Positions 1,951 through 21,307 of a DNA stretch of 24,000 bases are shown one piece after another. Numbering within the stretch: position 1 is the stretch's first letter; the number at the start of each line of letters is the position of its first letter. The notes below the pieces were generated by a model, which was not told where the DNA came from, did not search any database, and saw only the letters and a program-made list of their open reading frames with translations. A program made the position numbers and the translations under genes. Source of the DNA: an uncultured Clostridiaceae bacterium (GTDB lineage Bacteria; Bacillota; Clostridia; TANB77; CAG-465); contig CAZXLZ010000012.1 in the NCBI GenBank assembly GCA_964642045.1, forward strand, positions 2,820 to 26,819. The letters run 5' to 3'.

Positions 1951-2721
1951 TTATTTTAGGAAAAATTCCTCGGCTGTAATATCATTTATATAAAGATCTC
2001 CATTTTCAGTTAAGCTATATACAGCGCAGGCATTTGAAGAGTTTTGATAGAACCTTACTTTATAAAGGTAAAGTGAATTCATCTTTTTAGAAAGATCTTC
2101 TAAAAAAGCATTTTCAGCTATACCGTAGTTTTGATGAGTATAATCTTCATATGATTTTTGAAGTTCATCTAAGCTATCAGGAATTGAGGGCAAATCTTCC
2201 ATATATATTGAGTTTGATACTTTTAAATCTGTTTCATTACCATCTATAACAAGATGCATATCATGATTTGTCCATATTATGCTTATTTCATCATCTACTA
2301 TAACAAATCTCGGTTCATTCTCAATTTTGTCTTGAAATTTGATAAGTAAATTGTATGTTTCTTCTGATGGTGATTTAAATCCATCACTTAATGCTTTCGC
2401 GTAGGCAGCTTCAAAATTTCCATCTATTACAGTTGGTAATAACTGGTGATTAAAAGAGGGCTGTGTATTTTCATAGTCATCTATCAAATATTCACATGAA
2501 TTAAAAAATGTTTCATTGATAGCAGTGCTATAACTTTCTGTAGTTGTTTCTACAGGAATTATAGAGTGTGCTTCAGAAGTATAACTTTCATATACATCAT
2601 ATGAATTAGTAATTGCTATTTGCATATCACTATTATTTATAACAGTATTGCTGTTTGTACATCCTGTAATAATAAGCACAAGCGCTAAAACAATAGATGT
2701 AATAATAATTTTAGATTTCAT
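1951..2721 (-). CDS. Putative lipoprotein of unknown function
   Basis: The N-terminus MKSKIIITSIVLALVLIITGCTNS has a signal peptide and an L-I-I-T-G-C lipobox. RBS: TTGGAGGTAACAATTAATG. Confidence 0.7.
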   Translation of the reverse strand: MKSKIIITSIVLALVLIITGCTNSNTVINNSDMQIAITNSYDVYESYTSEAHSIIPVETTTESYSTAINETFFNSCEYLIDDYENTQPSFNHQLLPTVIDGNFEAAYAKALSDGFKSPSEETYNLLIKFQDKIENEPRFVIVDDEISIIWTNHDMHLVIDGNETDLKVSNSIYMEDLPSIPDSLDELQKSYEDYTHQNYGIAENAFLEDLSKKMNSLYLYKVRFYQNSSNACAVYSLTENGDLYINDITAEEFFLK

Positions 2722-2863
2722 TAATTGTTACCTCCAAATTTTTCAGTTTTTATTTGACCTAGTTTTAGTCAAATTACATTGTTTTAATTTGTGTAATTAT
2801 ATCATAATTTACATAAAATGTAAAGACCAACTTAAAATGAGTAGCAATTTTTGTATAATTTTG

Positions 2864-2893
2864 TTGATAAAAATAGACTTTTGTGTTATAAAG
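2864..2893 (+). promoter_or_regulatory. Candidate sigma-A promoter for the ABC exporter operon
   Basis: TTGATA (2864..2869), a 17-nt spacer, then TGt-TATAAA. It lies about 30 nt upstream of the RBS and ATG at 2924. Confidence 0.45.
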
Positions 2894-2923
2894 ATACAAG
2901 CGTAGATGTAAAGAGGAAATAAT

Positions 2924-4684
2924 ATGAAAAATAGTTTTTTTGGAAGAACTCTAAAAGGTGCAAAATTGTATTTAGCAAGTGCAATCATATTAAGTATTGC
3001 ATATTCCAAACTTTTGATATATGTCCCAATGTTTATAAAGTATGCTCTTGATGGTGTCATAATGGGAAATGAGAGTGTAATACCGTGGATAATAAGTAGT
3101 TTATTTTACTTAGATAATAAAGTATATAAAATAGTAATTCTTGCACTAACTTTAATAGTGGTCAACATACTTATATTCATTGTAAATTATTTAAAAAGCA
3201 AGGTTAATACAAAGTTTAATTTAAGGATAAACAGGAATGTTAAGAACATAATTTTAGAGCATATACCTAAGATAGAGTATATGGAGTTTAGTAAAATTGA
3301 TAAATCTAATGTAATACAAAGAGTTAATAATGATGCTGCTACATATGCAGAGTTTTTTAATTCTCAAATAAATATTTTCTTTGATACAATATTTATAATA
3401 ATATTTGCTGTAGCTGAGACTTTAAAATTAAATGTTACAGTTGGGATATTTATTGCTATAATTTGCATGCTAATAGTTATAATTTCAATTTGGTTTTTTA
3501 GGGTTTCTAAGCCTCTAGTAGAAGATACAGTTGAAATGAATAAAGAAGTAATTAATAAAACTACAATAGCTGTAGAAGAATCTAAAATGCTGAAGATATT
3601 TAACAGACAAGATAAAGAAATATCAGATTTTATAAATATGAATAATGAATATAAGAGAAAAGATATAAAGCTTGCAAGACTAAAAGTAATATACGGAATA
3701 ACAACACATAATTTAAGAAATTTTAAAGAGCCTTTTATATTGCTTTTTGGTGGAATTTTAGTTGTAAAAGGAGAGCTTACTTTAGCTGGAATATCAATAC
3801 TTTTAACATATAGTACAAAAATACTTGAGTATGTATATAAATCTGTGGATAAACTAAAAGAAATTAATGAATTTATAGTTGCATACAAAAAATTATCTGA
3901 TCTTATGAAGTTAGATGAAAATACTTGTGAAAATCCTTATGTAAGGCTAGATGGTAATATTACTTTTAAAAATGTATCAGTAGAAATAAATGGTAGTATG
4001 ATACTAGAAAACTTAAATTTTACTATTAATAAAGGTGAAAATGTAGCTATAATAGGAGATAATGGCTCAGGAAAGACTATCATTTCAAAAACACTATTTG
4101 GTTTTTATAATTATACAGGAGATATTTATATAGGTGAGAATAATATAAAAAATGTAAATAGAAAGAGTATTACAGACTATATTGGAGTAGTTCTTCAAGA
4201 TACATATCTATTTACAGATACAGTAAAAAATAATATAAATATAACAAATAGGAAAGTTAGTGATAAAAAAGTAATAGAGGTTTTAAAATTATCTGAAATG
4301 TATGAAGATGTTCTCAAGTTTGACGATAAGCTAAATTATATGATAGGAAAAGGTGGAAATAATATTTCAGGCGGGCAGAAACAAAGAATAGCTATAGCAA
4401 GAAGTTTAATTAAAGAAAATAGTTTTATTATTTTTGATGATTCACTATCAAAACTTGATACTAAGACAAAACTTAGTATACTAAACAATATTATAAAAAT
4501 GAAAATGGGTAGCATCATTATATCACATGATAAAGAAGCTTTAAAAAAATGTGATAAGGTTTTATTTATACGTGATAAAACTATAAAAACAGGGACACAT
4601 GATGAGTTAATGGAAAATGATAGTCTATATAAAGATATTATAGATGTCCATAATAATAAAATTTTAGAGGAAGAGGAAATATAA
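2924..4684 (+). CDS. ABC exporter half-transporter (fused permease and ATPase); the subunit carrying the degenerate ATPase site
   Basis: An N-terminal multi-TM domain is followed by Walker A GDNGSGKT, Q-loop VLQDTYLF and canonical signature ISGGQKQRIAIARSL. Walker B is IIFDDSLS, so Asp-Asp (4436..4441) replaces the usual Asp-Glu. H-loop is ISHD. RBS: AAGAGGAAATAATATG. Confidence 0.9.
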   Translation: MKNSFFGRTLKGAKLYLASAIILSIAYSKLLIYVPMFIKYALDGVIMGNESVIPWIISSLFYLDNKVYKIVILALTLIVVNILIFIVNYLKSKVNTKFNLRINRNVKNIILEHIPKIEYMEFSKIDKSNVIQRVNNDAATYAEFFNSQINIFFDTIFIIIFAVAETLKLNVTVGIFIAIICMLIVIISIWFFRVSKPLVEDTVEMNKEVINKTTIAVEESKMLKIFNRQDKEISDFINMNNEYKRKDIKLARLKVIYGITTHNLRNFKEPFILLFGGILVVKGELTLAGISILLTYSTKILEYVYKSVDKLKEINEFIVAYKKLSDLMKLDENTCENPYVRLDGNITFKNVSVEINGSMILENLNFTINKGENVAIIGDNGSGKTIISKTLFGFYNYTGDIYIGENNIKNVNRKSITDYIGVVLQDTYLFTDTVKNNINITNRKVSDKKVIEVLKLSEMYEDVLKFDDKLNYMIGKGGNNISGGQKQRIAIARSLIKENSFIIFDDSLSKLDTKTKLSILNNIIKMKMGSIIISHDKEALKKCDKVLFIRDKTIKTGTHDELMENDSLYKDIIDVHNNKILEEEEI

Positions 4685-4795: not shown

Positions 4796-6379
4796 ATGGT
4801 AGAATATGCAATACCTAGTAAAAATATAAATTTAATAATTATGCTTGGCCTTAGTTACTTTGGCATTAATATCTTAAGAGCTATTTTTACATTTTTTGAA
4901 GATCTTACTTATGATAGCCTTGTAAAAGAAATTAGTGCAGACTATCGTGAGAAAATATATGTAAAATTGCAAAATCTGAATCAGAGCAGTATAGATAAGA
5001 TAAAAGTAGGAGAGATACTAGAAAATATAGTGAATGATACTAAAGAACTTCCAAGATGGTATACAACTGGAATATGTAGACCATCTTTCATGGGTTTAGT
5101 TAGGCTTATAGGTACTCTTGTAGTTTTAGCTTATCTAGATATACCAATCGTTATAATAACGCTCGCTATATACATGCTAGGCTTTTTTGTAGCACATATA
5201 TTTAATAAAAAATCTATAAAATATACTAAATTAAAAAGGGAAGCAAATGCTAAGATACTTAACTTTTCTAATGAGCAAGTGCAAGGTTGTTCGACAATAA
5301 AGGCACTAGAAATAGAAAAGGAAAGATTAAAAGAGTTAAAAGAGCTTTTATCAAAGTATGAAAAGGTAACTGATAAACTAGAAAAAAATATTAGAATATA
5401 TAACTGTTTATATGATTTTATAGTATCTTTTGTTGGAGTAACAAACATATTTATAGGATCTATTAGTGTACAAAGTGGTATAATAGCATATAGCGCAATG
5501 ATAATACTTGCAAGATATATATCATCTCCTGAAACTTATGCCAAGTGGGTAATAGAAGGTTTTCAGTATAGGAATGTTGGCAGAATATCTTATGAAAGAA
5601 TAAGAAATATTTTAACAAAAGAAGAGGAAAATGTTGATATAGGGGAAAACTTAACCAAAGTTGACACAATAAAATTTAACAATGTGAGTTTTTCTTATGA
5701 TGGAATAAGTAATGTTCTTAATGGTATATCATTTGAGGTAAATAGGAATGAGAGTATTGCTTTAATTGGTAGGACTGGAAGTGGAAAGACAAGTTTGGTA
5801 AATCTACTTTGTAGATTTTATGAAGTAGATAAAAATAATATGATTGAAATAAATGGAAGAGATTATAAAGATTATAGTATAAGAAGTCTTAGAAGTAAAA
5901 TAGGATATATAATGCAAAAAGTAGTAATATTTGATGGTACAATTTATGAGAATATAAATTATGCAGATAAGGATATTTCTAAAGATGAGATAATAAGAGT
6001 TTGTAAAAGATTAAATTTACATGATAAGATTAGTAGCTTAAAAAATGGATATGATACAAAAATTAGTAGTGATACCGATATATTTTCAGCTGGTGAAAAA
6101 CAGTTATTAAATTTCGCTAGAGTTATGATATTTAATCCTGAAATAATAATATTAGATGAAGCAACATCATCTCTTTCATATAAGTCAGAAATGATGGTAA
6201 GAAAAGCAGTAGAAGAAATAACAAAAGGAAAGATTAGTTTTATTATTGCACACAGACTTTCTACAATCAAAAATTGTGATAAAATATTACTTATGAAAGA
6301 AGGATGTGTGATAGAAGAAGGAACACATGATGAGCTTATGAAAAAGCAAGGAGAGTATTATAATTTAGTTTGTGCATAA
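4796..6379 (+). CDS. ABC exporter half-transporter (fused permease and ATPase); the consensus-site subunit. The 5' end appears frameshifted and the likely original start is GTG 4687.
   Basis: Walker A GRTGSGKTS, Q-loop IMQKVVIF, non-canonical signature FSAGEKQ (6083..6103), Walker B IIILDEATSSL, H-loop IAHRLST. ATG 4796 has no RBS. GTG 4687 lies 3 nt after the upstream stop and behind GAGGAAGAGGAAAT, but that frame stops at 4756..4758. The main frame is open from 4736. Confidence 0.85.
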   Translation: MVEYAIPSKNINLIIMLGLSYFGINILRAIFTFFEDLTYDSLVKEISADYREKIYVKLQNLNQSSIDKIKVGEILENIVNDTKELPRWYTTGICRPSFMGLVRLIGTLVVLAYLDIPIVIITLAIYMLGFFVAHIFNKKSIKYTKLKREANAKILNFSNEQVQGCSTIKALEIEKERLKELKELLSKYEKVTDKLEKNIRIYNCLYDFIVSFVGVTNIFIGSISVQSGIIAYSAMIILARYISSPETYAKWVIEGFQYRNVGRISYERIRNILTKEEENVDIGENLTKVDTIKFNNVSFSYDGISNVLNGISFEVNRNESIALIGRTGSGKTSLVNLLCRFYEVDKNNMIEINGRDYKDYSIRSLRSKIGYIMQKVVIFDGTIYENINYADKDISKDEIIRVCKRLNLHDKISSLKNGYDTKISSDTDIFSAGEKQLLNFARVMIFNPEIIILDEATSSLSYKSEMMVRKAVEEITKGKISFIIAHRLSTIKNCDKILLMKEGCVIEEGTHDELMKKQGEYYNLVCA

Positions 6380-9622: not shown

Positions 9623-9732
9623 AATTAATCCTCCAAATGTTAATTATATATTTTGTGTCTAATAAAAATTTATTATATTATATCAGATTAGCTATATAAT
9701 GTCAACTAGATTACATAAATAAAAATTTGCAT

Positions 9733-9761
9733 TTGACATAGAAATTTTTTTAGAGTATAAT
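9733..9761 (+). promoter_or_regulatory. Consensus sigma-A promoter of rnj
   Basis: TTGACA (9733..9738), an exactly 17-nt spacer, then TATAAT (9756..9761). The leader to ATG 9887 is about 120 nt. Confidence 0.7.
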
Positions 9762-9886
9762 AATTAAGTCTTTTGAGTGCTAAGGTACTTATAGTTGTGT
9801 TCGGGTTTTTATTATCACTTTGAGTGATTAAAGTAATTTTTATTGTTTTCATATCTATATTAGTATTATAGATAGGAGAAAAAAGT

Positions 9887-13677: not shown

Positions 13678-14043
13678 GGGGGCGTAAGGTTTCGACGGCT
13701 ATTTTGATACATGAATTGCAAGTAGTGGATGGTTGCTTTGGCCACTATAAAAAAGCAAGTTAAATTTAAACGCAGATAATAGAGAATTTGCACTTGCTGC
13801 TTAATTTTTTTAAGCAGCTTGCTACTTAGAGTTTGCTAGAGGCTCTTTTTGTAGCATCATTTATCTAGCTAACAAGTTAAAGTCTTTGGTTACTGGATTT
13901 TAATGGTATTTTTAGTAACTAAACTAGAGCATGTTTTGGTGCACATTAGATTGCTTTAGTTTTATTTTAAATGTGTACTAAACTTGTAGATATTCATGAG
14001 GATGAATTTTCGGACGCGAGTTCAACTCTCGCCGCCTCCACCA
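13678..14043 (+). ncRNA. ssrA: tmRNA (transfer-messenger RNA, SsrA)
   Basis: The 5' GGGGGCGTAAGGTTTCGACGG and the 3' GGACGCGAGTTCAACTCTCGCCGCCTCCACCA form a tRNA-Ala-like acceptor and T-arm. This includes the G3:U wobble and a CCA end. The internal tag frame is GCA GAT AAT AGA GAA TTT GCA CTT GCT GCT TAA (13772..13804). It gives (A)DNREFALAA; the exact resume codon is uncertain. Confidence 0.95.
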
Positions 14044-14077: not shown

Positions 14078-14350
14078 CTTTGTCAATATTTCTAAAAAAA
14101 GATGAAGTCTTGATTTTATGTCTAGTAGAATAGATTTGAATATTTTTATATCTCTGCATGGCTTTTTAGTTTTACACTTTTTTTATAAATCTTGTTTATA
14201 ACTTTTTCATTGAAGAAACCTTTTTATAATATACCAATATATTATTTTATATACAATCTTCATATTTTATTTTCTATATTTCTATTCTATCATCAAGAAA
14301 TTAAATATATAATAAAAATAATATAATATTAGTATGGTCAGGAGAGAAAA

Positions 14351-14719
14351 ATGAATAAAAAGATAGGAAAAATTACTAAAAAAGTGATAGAAACATTAGA
14401 ATTAGATATAGAAGAAGATACACCAATTTTTATAAGTGAAAGAAACATAGAACATATAAAAAATAAACATTATAAAGATTATGAAAAATATTTTAATCAA
14501 ATTTGCAATATTATTGAAAATCCAACTTATGTTGCAAGGCATCCTGATAAAACTTCAATAGAGTACATAAAACAATACATCCTTAATAATGAATATGTTC
14601 TAGTTGCAGTTAGGGTAAGTAGTAATAATGTAAATTTTGCTAGAACAATGTTTGTTATGACAGAAAAGAAAGTTGAAATTTACAAAAATATGCGGATATT
14701 TCAAAAAAATATAATTTGA
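14351..14719 (+). CDS. Putative PBECR-like (Barnase/EndoU/ColicinE5-D/RelE-fold) nuclease-domain protein; possible toxin
   Basis: RBS CAGGAGAGAAAAATG. The 122-aa pattern 'ISERNIEHIKNKHYKDYEKYF..I..IIENPTYV..HPDKTSIEYIK.....EYVLVAVRV......FARTMFVM' resembles small Firmicute PBECR-family proteins as I recall them. The call is from memory only. Confidence 0.4.
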   Translation: MNKKIGKITKKVIETLELDIEEDTPIFISERNIEHIKNKHYKDYEKYFNQICNIIENPTYVARHPDKTSIEYIKQYILNNEYVLVAVRVSSNNVNFARTMFVMTEKKVEIYKNMRIFQKNII

Positions 14720-14744
14720 CAAATAAAAAAATGTATGCTATAAT
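14716..14744 (+). promoter_or_regulatory. Consensus sigma-A promoter driving the structured-RNA candidate
   Basis: TTGACA (14716..14721, overlapping the TGA stop of the upstream gene), an exactly 17-nt spacer, then TGc-TATAAT (14739..14744). Confidence 0.65.
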
Positions 14745-14750
14745 TAAGCT

Positions 14751-14890
14751 AAGCATAATATATTAATAGAAAGCTCTGAGGTCGGAACAGGCAGCCGACA
14801 CCCACGTAAGTGTTAGGAGATGTAGAAAGGTCAATCTACCTAGCTTTCTGACTATAAGTGGGAATAGATGTAAAAGTCTATTCTCTTTTT
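14751..14890 (+). ncRNA. Candidate structured small RNA or riboswitch-like leader; family not recognised
   Basis: Hand count gives 40/80 G+C for 14771..14850, well above the AT-rich flanks. An 8-bp closing helix joins AGAAAGCT (14768..14775) to AGCTTTCT (14842..14849). It encloses three hairpins: GTCGG/CCGAC (14781..14799), CAC-GTAA-GTG (14803..14812, a GNRA loop) and GTAGA/TCTAC (14822..14839). A terminator follows: GAATAGA (14862..14868) / TCTATTC (14877..14883) plus CTTTTT. Confidence 0.55.
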
Positions 14891-15047
14891 GTATGTAAAA
14901 TGGAGGAAATTTTATAATACTGATTTTACATATAATATGATAATCAGTTATGCTTTAAATATTTATAATACAGTAATGTTTATATTTTTACATTTTAAAC
15001 ATTTTGTAAAAATCAAAATATATGTTAAAATTATAACGGTGATAAAA

Positions 15048-15722
15048 ATGAAATTAGTTACTTTTCAAACTTTTGATGCTTTAAAGAACCTTATTAATAA
15101 TGGTGAATTAATTTGTGATGAAAATTACATTAACTTAGAAAAATCAGGCTTAGCATATAAATGGGTATTAGAAAAAATGAATAAGGTAGTCAAAAATAAT
15201 ACTAAGGCTAAATATCCAATATGGTGCTGGGCTAAATGTTATAGTGGAATTTGTCCACCAAAACATAGAGGAGAAAAAGTTAAAGGATTTGACGTCAAAA
15301 TAACATTTAATAAGCCTGAAAAAGATGTCTTTATAACAGATTTTAGAAGATATTCTTTTCTTTTAAATAATATGTATATTCCTAATACGTTAAGAGAAAA
15401 AGAACAATTCTTAAACAAAATGAAAAAACTAAATATCACATCAGAAGAATTGAAAATGTATGCAAGAACTGATAAAGATAACTTTCATAGGGAAGATAAA
15501 GAGTATTTGCAGCTTTTAAGAGAAATAAGAAAAACTTTTGATAGGTGTATAACAAAAGATAGTGATATTTTACAGGGGTGTATTTGGAATATAAAACTAT
15601 CAGAAGTAGAAAATATAGAGATTTTGCCAAACGATGGATATACATATGGATCATTAAATTATAAAAGAAGTAATGGTAAGAGAATAGATTGGCAAAAAGA
15701 TTATTATAAATTATTAAAATAA
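15048..15722 (+). CDS. DUF3841 family protein
   Basis: I prefer the start at the internal Met (MKLVTFQTFDALKNLINNGELICDE...), which resembles DUF3841 N-termini (MKLWTIQ...). The ORF-track start at 14889 is a TTG inside the upstream terminator. Confidence 0.55.
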   Translation: MKLVTFQTFDALKNLINNGELICDENYINLEKSGLAYKWVLEKMNKVVKNNTKAKYPIWCWAKCYSGICPPKHRGEKVKGFDVKITFNKPEKDVFITDFRRYSFLLNNMYIPNTLREKEQFLNKMKKLNITSEELKMYARTDKDNFHREDKEYLQLLREIRKTFDRCITKDSDILQGCIWNIKLSEVENIEILPNDGYTYGSLNYKRSNGKRIDWQKDYYKLLK

Positions 15723-18960: not shown

Positions 18961-19003
18961 TTTTAGATTGTATTATTATATATGTAAAGCTATTATATTA
19001 ATA

Positions 19004-19037
19004 ATATCTTGATAAATATTTACTTTTGTGATAGTTA
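19004..19037 (+). promoter_or_regulatory. Promoter/operator module, copy 1 of a 32-nt repeat
   Basis: ATATCTTGATAAATATTTACTTTTGTGATAGT (19004..19035) contains TTGATA (19009..19014), a 17-nt spacer and TGa-TAGTTA. It matches 21274..21305 at 31 of 32 positions. Confidence 0.55.
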
Positions 19038-21134: not shown

Positions 21135-21273
21135 AATTTTTCCTCCAAATATGATTTTTTGCTGATAGATATTTGTATCCATCATTTTTTAGTTTGTTGT
21201 TTACATATTTTATCATATGCAGTTCTAAAAGTCAATAATTATGTAAAATGTTAAGCTGTATTAGTTAATAAAT

Positions 21274-21307
21274 ATATCTTGATAAATATTTATTTTTGTG
21301 ATAGTAT
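21274..21307 (+). promoter_or_regulatory. Promoter/operator module, copy 2 of a 32-nt repeat
   Basis: ATATCTTGATAAATATTTATTTTTGTGATAGT (21274..21305) contains TTGATA, a 17-nt spacer and TGa-TAGTAT. It lies about 29 nt upstream of ATG 21336. Confidence 0.55.

Follow-up and report, generated by a model that had tools for sequence, protein, structure and literature searches.

A skipping-rope RNA and a predicted PBECR3 RNase in a mobile two-gene module: a candidate toxin/RNA-antitoxin pair

We analyzed a stretch of DNA of 24,000 nucleotides (nt), hereafter the window, from an uncultured Clostridiaceae bacterium (contig CAZXLZ010000012.1, positions 2,820 to 26,819). Positions 14768-14849 of the window almost certainly encode a skipping-rope RNA; the element is a member of a class known since 2017, not a new kind of RNA. 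By its predicted promoter and intrinsic terminator, it is a discrete small RNA (sRNA) with a transcription unit of its own, and it is the 3' half of a predicted mobile two-gene module of about 580 bp. The 5' half of the module encodes a solo PBECR3 protein, a predicted RNase. The RNA and PBECR3 very probably form a functional unit. The best combined explanation, to which we give an even chance, would be an independently transcribed sRNA that acts as the partner of the predicted RNase PBECR3, most probably in the role of a type III-like RNA antitoxin.

The window RNA is a full-length skipping-rope RNA

A scan against Rfam gave a match to RF02924 (skipping-rope) at 14771-14846, with 55.2 bits against a gathering score of 36.7 (E = 6.9e-11) and spanning model positions 1-80 of 80. 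RF02924 was again the sole significant match in a permissive Rfam scan. In a scan of the whole window, two matches exceeded the gathering score, namely skipping-rope and a transfer-messenger RNA (tmRNA) at 13678-14043. Our own covariance model (CM), R1, scored the window RNA with 65.7 bits at 14765-14857. An initial annotation, made from the letters of the sequence, had implied that the element matches no known class and had proposed a cmscan search against Rfam; the significant match to a known family shows that this implication was wrong.

The skipping-rope motif was described by Weinberg et al. (2017, NAR 45:10811; PMC5737381) and is among four motifs that its discoverers flagged for a likely "sophisticated biochemical function." According to the same paper, it seldom occurs in 5' untranslated regions (UTRs) and is therefore improbable as a riboswitch, showed no self-cleavage, and has a compelling association with nearby-encoded proteins (PMC5737381); PBECR3 may or may not be the protein meant. 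No later functional study of this RNA was found in the literature searched.

In addition to its score above the threshold, the window RNA shows a covarying outer stem of variable length with three hairpins, a 3' terminator, and a location outside a 5' UTR. As in the published family, a closing helix encloses three hairpins, the conserved GAGG, GGAA..GG..CC and GAGAUG segments are present, a Rho-independent terminator follows the motif, and a protein gene lies nearby; we saw no structural difference (PMC5737381). A pseudoknot between loops 1 and 3, which the Rfam structure line for RF02924 does not show, was found in this analysis.

Promoter, predicted fold and terminator

The RNA is encoded on the plus strand behind a sigma-A/sigma-70 promoter, TTGACA-17-TGcTATAAT (14716-14744), which fits the consensus at 12/12 positions and has an extended TG. 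It is the top-scoring promoter-like site found between 13500 and 16000 by a promoter scan. The TGA stop codon of the upstream open reading frame (ORF), at 14717-14719, falls inside the -35 hexamer. The G+C content of 14771-14850 is exactly 40/80. The window as a whole has 26.9% G+C, the PBECR3 gene 22.5% and the downstream spacer 16.6%.

The core of the RNA (14768-14849, plus strand), defined by Rfam, R1 and covariation, consists of the closing helix P1 around three hairpins. The 5' strand of P1 (14768-14775) pairs perfectly with 14842-14849 over 8 bp when read from the sequence, and minimum free energy folds give the same helix. The hairpins were assigned using the Rfam consensus. In hairpin 1 (14781-14799), the arms GUCGG and CCGAC (14781-14785 and 14795-14799) flank the 9-nt loop AACAGGCAG. 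Hairpin 2 (14801-14817) is the variable arm, CAC-GUAA-GUG, with arms at 14803-14805 and 14810-14812, the GUAA loop at 14806-14809 and a closing pair C14801-G14817. Hairpin 3 (14822-14839) has the arms GUAGA and UCUAC (14822-14826 and 14835-14839) and the loop AAGGUCAA. Covariation assigned both sides of the pseudoknot, in which GGC of loop 1 (14790-14792) pairs with GUC of loop 3 (14830-14832) through G14790-C14832, G14791-U14831 and C14792-G14830.

A terminator scan detected an intrinsic terminator at 14860-14890, consisting of a stem-loop (14860-14885) with 10 pairs and a 6-nt loop, followed by TTTTTGT. Between promoter and terminator, there is no plus-strand ORF of at least 20 aa and, in antisense, just one ORF of 23 aa. 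The initial annotation had already described the promoter, the 40/80 G+C content, the 8-bp closing helix with three hairpins and a GTAA tetraloop, the terminator with its U-tract, and the lack of a fitting ORF, all of which we found again.

The folding energy of the lone sequence is not significant (z = -1.05 for the core and -2.1 with the terminator included). The case that the structure is more than a chance fold therefore comes from the Rfam match and from covariation.

Covariation across the family supports the helices and the pseudoknot

To sample the family, a degenerate pattern was built from the Rfam consensus. It matched at least 120 viral contigs; the viral matches listed all looked like true members on inspection and contained 77 unique sequences. 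The same pattern matched 119 genome loci, and R1 confirmed 86 of them, with 89 RNA copies at 49.7 bits or more. Chance pattern matches in the genome set scored 24 bits or less with R1. Overall, the comparison set comprised about 300 fetched related loci. The skipping-rope hosts are nearly all Bacillota (Clostridia, Lachnospiraceae, Oscillospiraceae, Negativicutes, Streptococcus and some Bacilli).

In a MAFFT alignment of 74 sequences, standard pairs filled 87.2% of cells, compared with 35-48% when the partners were slid, and double-sided changes numbered 422, compared with 167 in shuffles. The corresponding values for a CM alignment of 99 sequences were 89.8% against 31-46% and 598 against 198. 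The observed number was reached by 0/500 shuffles in either alignment. Covariation of the proposed helices, a check named in the initial annotation, is thus present, with 19-21 pairs showing double-sided changes family-wide. All 9 pairs of P1 covary in this way across the family. Hairpin 1 is paired in 98-100% of cells, its second pair varying between UA, AU and GC, and hairpin 3 is paired in 95-99.6% of cells and has 3-4 covarying pairs. The least conserved helix is hairpin 2, which is paired in 71-75% of cells and nearly absent in some members.

The 3-bp kissing pseudoknot between loops 1 and 3 pairs in about 99% of cells of the 74-sequence alignment. In the CM-aligned set, its first pair is GC in 96/97 sequences, the second is GC (51) or GU (45), and the third is CG (58), UA (32) or UG (3). 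The loop-3 columns of the pseudoknot had been left free by the search pattern. The predicted fold, including the 3-bp pseudoknot, is strongly supported by covariation.

A separate observation concerns loci in which a subtype-B copy apparently interrupts a subtype-A RNA, either within hairpin 3 or behind it, giving a nested or fused arrangement (L023, positions 5894-5988; L048; L068; and L024, positions 5061-5156).

The RNA is the 3' half of a mobile module with a PBECR3 gene

The gene upstream of the RNA (14351-14719, plus strand) encodes a protein of 122 aa, a PBECR3-family predicted RNase and putative toxin. It matches Pfam PF18812 (PBECR3) with E = 2.6e-23 and 82.6 bits against a cutoff of 30, which makes the "PBECR-like" label of the initial annotation more specific.

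By blastn homology, the PBECR3 and skipping-rope module extends from 14314 to 14890 on the plus strand and contains the ribosome-binding site region, the toxin gene, the RNA promoter, the RNA and the terminator. The module is 80% identical, over 591 columns, to its counterparts in loci L240 and L153, which lie in a different genomic context. The homology begins 37 nt before the ATG and ends with the U-tract of the terminator at 14890; the following gene, which encodes a DUF3841 protein, is excluded. The flanks vary in every context and include RecO/RecJ, SpoIIE, YlmH/radical SAM, lysin/integrase, bAvd/hydrolase and PALP genes. No conserved protein partner was found beside the module, the genes on both sides differing in each fetched context.

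A promoter with at least 10/12 matches lies between the gene end and the RNA in 68/72 modules, compared with 0/72 control intervals. PBECR3's own promoter reaches this score in just 19/67 cases, despite a larger search window. A terminator (hairpin ΔG of -8 kcal/mol or lower, then a T-run) follows the RNA in 56/72 modules.

The RNA also occurs by itself in a viral contig (IMGVR_UViG_3300006217_000212; L043, positions 9700-9842). There, the RNA and its terminator are 92% identical to window positions 14760-14900, PBECR3 is missing, and the RNA cassette lies just upstream of a GH25/LysM lysin gene. This similarity suggests that a phage and a PBECR3-carrying host lineage recently exchanged the RNA cassette by itself.

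A role as an attenuator of DUF3841 does not fit the module

The gene that starts at 15048 was identified as DUF3841 by Pfam. The initial annotation had offered two readings: in the first, the element is an sRNA of about 135 nt that stands on its own next to the PBECR-like toxin and may be its antitoxin; in the second, it is a riboswitch-like attenuator for the gene at 15048. We consider the second extremely improbable. It is true that the terminator precedes DUF3841 on the same strand and that a bulged pairing of 7 bp can be drawn between 14834-14840 and 14861-14869, as an antiterminator would need. This pairing exists as proposed; it is, however, weak (-2.4 kcal/mol for the arms originally proposed; -1.9 kcal/mol, z = +0.25 versus shuffles, for the fold-derived arms TCTACC and TGGGAATAGAT) and not conserved, since 49 unique family members show no enrichment for it (mean z -0.09). 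L043 has the terminator in common with the window, and its hairpin 3 carries compensatory changes that the terminator does not match, so that the pairing is broken there.

The genomic context also speaks against attenuation of DUF3841. The gene is beside the RNA in none of the other approximately 300 fetched loci, the homology of the module stops before it, and 158 nt with a candidate promoter separate the terminator from its ATG. Genes downstream of the RNA are heterogeneous across loci and provide no coherent set of 5' UTR targets, and the family is rarely found in 5' UTRs (PMC5737381). Because the pairing is weak, unenriched and broken in L043, and because DUF3841 is absent elsewhere, we rejected a riboswitch or attenuator for this gene. 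The first reading agrees with the comparative evidence: the promoter and terminator recur in the modules, and PBECR3 genes found independently always carry the RNA, as detailed below.

Every evaluable solo PBECR3 gene is followed by the RNA

The linkage was counted in both directions. RNA-first counts used unique viral loci, among the matches listed, and genome RNA copies with an upstream flank of 500 nt or more. In these samples, PBECR3 was by far the most frequent neighbor of the skipping-rope RNA. It was present in 26/69 viral loci among the matches listed and at 41/78 genome RNA copies (38-53%), the difference between the two sets being a trend only (Fisher p = 0.10). The PBECR3 gene was located directly upstream and co-oriented in 68/70 cases, with a median gap of about 60 nt.

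For the opposite direction, a protein search with the window PBECR3 gave 92 solo homologues of about 120 aa, and the contigs of nine of them (43-74% identical) were fetched, yielding 46 loci. The RNA was found on the same strand in 45 of the 46, with the model match beginning 42-59 nt past the annotated gene end; in the 46th locus, the sequence stops 31 nt past the PBECR3 gene. The RNA was also next to the PBECR3 homologue in 3/3 Streptococcus suis prophage records obtained with a distant seed, and it was present in 15/15 evaluable viral contigs from three further distant seeds. In total, the RNA closely follows the gene, in the same orientation, in 63/63 evaluable PBECR3 loci. The linkage is strict from protein to RNA and holds in about half of the cases from RNA to protein. 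The spacing of the RNA was kept across PBECR3 proteins of 21-47% identity and in many contexts, and distances among the proteins correlate with those among the RNAs (Mantel rho 0.69; 0/2000 permutations).

In the S. suis prophages (L286, positions 2486-3210, from Streptococcus phage phiJH1301-1, KX077891.1; L287; L288), the PBECR3 homologue is annotated as "spbA protein." The RNA (72 bits) is unannotated and lies between the "spbA" gene and the att site, right after the lysin gene. It fails the original degenerate pattern.

RNAs without an adjacent PBECR3 gene are referred to as orphans. Fragments of PBECR3 were detected by tblastn (E ≤ 0.01) in 9/94 orphan-RNA loci; six of them, with E ≤ 1.3e-4, immediately precede the RNA or are located at a locus edge. 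In L303 (positions 1501-1750) and L304, PBECR3 is reduced to its C-terminal approximately 40 residues and an intact RNA (77.7 bits) lies downstream, a picture of toxin decay with the RNA kept.

One alternative is that the RNA is independent of PBECR3. It would then be a general mobile-cargo element, either a 3' companion of toxin or abortive-infection (Abi) cassettes with a role in mRNA stability or insulation, or a trans-acting RNA with a different target, and its adjacency to PBECR3 would reflect cassette history. Consistent with such independence, 47-62% of the RNAs (the viral part among the matches listed) are without PBECR3, the RNA and terminator occur alone in a viral contig at 92% identity, and orphans are found 7-130 nt after many unrelated genes, with toxins enriched upstream. 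Since the orphans follow genes so closely, mostly without a strong promoter, co-transcription as a 3' element is suggested. An independent RNA leaves unexplained, however, why 63/63 PBECR3 loci have the RNA at a fixed distance and why a near-consensus promoter lies inside the end of the PBECR3 gene. We regard this alternative as unlikely.

PBECR3 is a predicted RNase of the BECR fold

The AlphaFold2 (AF2) model of the window PBECR3 has a pLDDT of 92.9. Its best match in the PDB is the BECR-fold CdiA-CT toxin 7m5f_C (probability 0.96), with a TM score of just 0.44, and its best viral structural matches are MuF-C and polyvalent proteins. The predicted catalytic residues are conserved in the RNA-linked homologues: His35, which sits in helix 30-39 of the AF2 model, in 65/67, and Thr/Ser99 in 67/67. 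In the passages on PBECR domains by Iyer, Burroughs, Anand, de Souza and Aravind (2017; PMC5512222), His plus Thr/Ser is the active configuration. The window protein has the same pattern, and its structural neighbors are the MuF-C and polyvalent proteins treated there. Those passages discuss PBECR domains as injected effectors that possibly target host mRNA or CRISPR RNA, and they mention no linked non-coding RNA, whereas the window PBECR3 has one (PMC5512222). PBECR3 of the window type differs from the phage polyvalent and MuF domains in being a solo protein of about 120 aa that is often chromosomal and outside prophages.

The only PHROGs match of PBECR3 is a family of unknown function, and a search of solved structures with its sequence gave none. 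No match was obtained when the window protein alone was compared with viral contigs, nor in isolated phage genomes searched with the protein (tblastn) and the RNA (blastn); a distant PBECR3 seed did match Streptococcus prophages.

The RNA as a candidate type III-like antitoxin of PBECR3

That the RNA neutralizes PBECR3 as a type III-like RNA antitoxin has, in our estimate from sequence comparison, close to an even chance. Several observations point in this direction. The toxin was never seen without the RNA and the RNA is often alone, the asymmetry that a pair of this kind predicts. No conserved protein partner or immunity gene is found beside the module, the promoter of the RNA is far stronger than that of PBECR3, and PBECR3 fragments precede several of the "orphan" RNAs. 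In addition, there is a precedent in RCd22, in which the abiF motif turned out to be a protein-binding antitoxin (PMC12373285). If the RNA is an antitoxin, it would be made in excess from its strong promoter, bind PBECR3 directly and hold it inactive. The inhibition would last only while RNA synthesis continues and the RNA stays intact. Once it ends, for example upon phage infection or loss of the element, the freed PBECR3 RNase would cleave cellular RNA.

The abiF motif (RF03085) comes from the same 2017 survey as skipping-rope and is the RCd22 RNA antitoxin, which neutralizes the AbiF RNase by binding it directly (PMC12373285). Like the module, the AbiF/RCd22 system of a Clostridioides difficile prophage places a structured RNA beside a predicted RNase toxin, as prophage cargo near lysis genes. 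As in the module, the RNA is preceded by a sigma-A promoter of its own and ends at an intrinsic terminator; the RCd22 transcript, of approximately 100-130 nt, is abundant (PMC12373285). The two systems differ in arrangement, since RCd22 lies upstream of its toxin, in the 5' UTR, where it also attenuates toxin transcription, and skipping-rope lies downstream. They also differ in their parts: RCd22 consists of two hairpin motifs and skipping-rope of a pseudoknotted multi-helix junction, and the AbiF toxin is an Abi_2/HEPN protein and the putative toxin of the module a predicted BECR protein (PMC12373285).

With the classical type III systems (ToxIN, CptIN, TenpIN), the module shares a predicted endoRNase toxin with an RNA partner, small size, mobility, and carriage on mobile elements, the classical systems being borne by phages and plasmids. 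Orphan or phage-borne antitoxin RNAs have reportedly been described for the classical systems as well (Blower et al. 2012). The classical antitoxins are tandem short repeats that are processed by the toxin and lie upstream, with a terminator between the two genes; the skipping-rope RNA is single-copy, lies downstream and has its own promoter. We found no tandem repeat in 14745-14890, so a ToxI-type repeat array was rejected, and two copies of the RNA occur in just 3/86 genome loci. In L197 (positions 6042-6303), L205 (positions 3737-3996) and L209 (positions 3206-3456), two tandem skipping-rope copies lie about 160 nt apart, and in L197 and L209 a DUF3800 gene is upstream of them.

A number of points weigh against an antitoxin. 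The architecture, with a single structured RNA downstream of the toxin under its own promoter, is unlike that of classical type III systems, in which the antitoxin lies upstream in one operon with a terminator between. PADLOC gave no match for PBECR3, DUF3841 or the neighboring ORFs and lists neither component of the module. The protein-first samples consist of solo PBECR3 proteins alone and do not extend to the domains within polyvalent proteins, and the co-divergence of PBECR3 and RNA is also expected from plain linkage. About half of the skipping-rope RNAs (the viral part among the matches listed) are without PBECR3. A strong promoter is present at just 13/80 orphan RNAs, compared with 68/72 modules, and orphans often follow toxins that normally have protein antitoxins of their own (Abi_2, DUF3800, MazF, ParE/YafQ, PIN). 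It is hard to picture how a highly conserved RNA could be a specific inhibitor of unrelated proteins.

Antisense control in the manner of type I systems, by pairing of the RNA with PBECR3 mRNA, would fit with the adjacency of the genes and with an sRNA made from a strong promoter. However, predicted duplexes between the RNA and the translation-initiation region of PBECR3 are no better than those of shuffled sequences (mean z 0.06, n = 70, one below -2). Moreover, the RNA is encoded on the same strand with no overlap with the gene, and its conserved core would need to pair with highly divergent mRNAs. We therefore rejected this mechanism as very unlikely.

The RNA could also be an obligate positive partner of PBECR3, such as a scaffold, a specificity or guide subunit, or a processed substrate, with a ribonucleoprotein as the active agent. 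The strict linkage from protein to RNA and the co-divergence apply equally to such a partner, and a strong constitutive promoter would equally serve a cofactor. A conserved pseudoknotted fold also fits the "sophisticated biochemical function" proposed by Weinberg et al. (PMC5737381). On the other hand, the RNA is frequent without PBECR3, no PBECR3 gene was seen without the RNA, and the RNA persists where PBECR3 decays, all of which an antidote fits better, and the invariant core of the RNA has no variable, guide-like segment. To our knowledge, the BECR RNases characterized to date (the barnase, RelE and colicin E5/D families) act without RNA cofactors, which also argues against a positive partner. 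We thus give a positive partner a low probability.

If the RNA is indeed the antitoxin of PBECR3, RNA antitoxins would include a structurally new type, and the function of PBECR nucleases would become accessible for the first time. The unannotated gaps beside genes labeled "hypothetical" or "spbA" in many Clostridia, Negativicutes and Streptococcus prophages would also have an explanation. The analysis names a partner of the RNA (solo PBECR3), delimits a clonable unit of about 580 bp and yields a testable toxin/RNA-antitoxin prediction.

Orphan RNAs, a wider decoy role and likeness to tRNA

Upstream co-oriented neighbors of orphan RNAs include Abi_2 (four times), DUF3800 (three times), MazF and ParE/YafQ (twice each), PIN, Fic/Doc, a reverse transcriptase and NYN. 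Toxin or Abi genes make up about 15/59 of these neighbors. None of those toxin families appears in the top-25 list of 53 downstream neighbors, which instead contains integrases, repressors and lysis genes. For skipping-rope, Weinberg et al. proposed a tentative tie to DUF3800, a family that they linked to 11 further RNA motifs.

These neighbors raise the thought that toxins of the RNase type might share skipping-rope as a promiscuous antidote or decoy. Besides being the obligate antitoxin of solo PBECR3 nucleases, the RNA would have been recruited behind Abi_2, DUF3800, MazF, RelE/ParE/YafQ, PIN and NYN, possibly mimicking a tRNA-like substrate without a cleavable anticodon loop. We consider so broad a role rather improbable. 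If it exists, skipping-rope would represent a new type III-like family, widespread among Bacillota and their phages, whose antitoxin is pseudoknotted, cloverleaf-shaped and free of repeats; it would also be the RNA equivalent of Panacea, the hyperpromiscuous antitoxin domain. tRNases are found among the BECR toxins, for example colicins D and E5 and several CdiA-CTs (PMC8616854).

The RNA resembles tRNA in its four-way junction, with spacers of 2/1/4/0 nt, and in the 5-bp first and third arms. Its first loop has the form AAnnGG, and the GG mediates a tertiary contact between loops 1 and 3. This contact is a 3-bp antiparallel helix, however, and not the G18-psi55/G19-C56 elbow of tRNA. Furthermore, the loops have 9, 4 and 9 nt, the middle arm has a tetraloop or is nearly absent, the length of P1 varies, and there is no CCA. 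ARAGORN found only the tmRNA, and no Rfam tRNA match was obtained at E ≤ 10. Membership among tRNAs or tRNA-like RNAs was rejected, as no tRNA model detects the RNA and several defining features are absent; the resemblance is one of shape only.

Other features of the window

The tmRNA gene (13678-14043, plus strand; RF00023, 146 bits), for which ARAGORN gives the tag peptide ADNREFALAA, lies upstream of the module, with 270 nt between them. Genes for tmRNA are classic sites of integration. A direct repeat of the tmRNA 3' end was not found downstream, so that no island boundary can be demonstrated, and a genomic island integrated at the tmRNA was rejected.

Two tandem 25-nt units (ATAATACAGTAATGTTTAAATATTT) are present at 14940-14990, in the spacer upstream of the DUF3841 gene, for which they may serve as an operator or promoter element. 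A 40-nt repeat occurs at 18996-19035 and 21266-21305, with 90% identity between the copies. They lie 2270 nt apart, each in an intergenic position upstream of a plus-strand ORF, and may represent a shared regulatory site.

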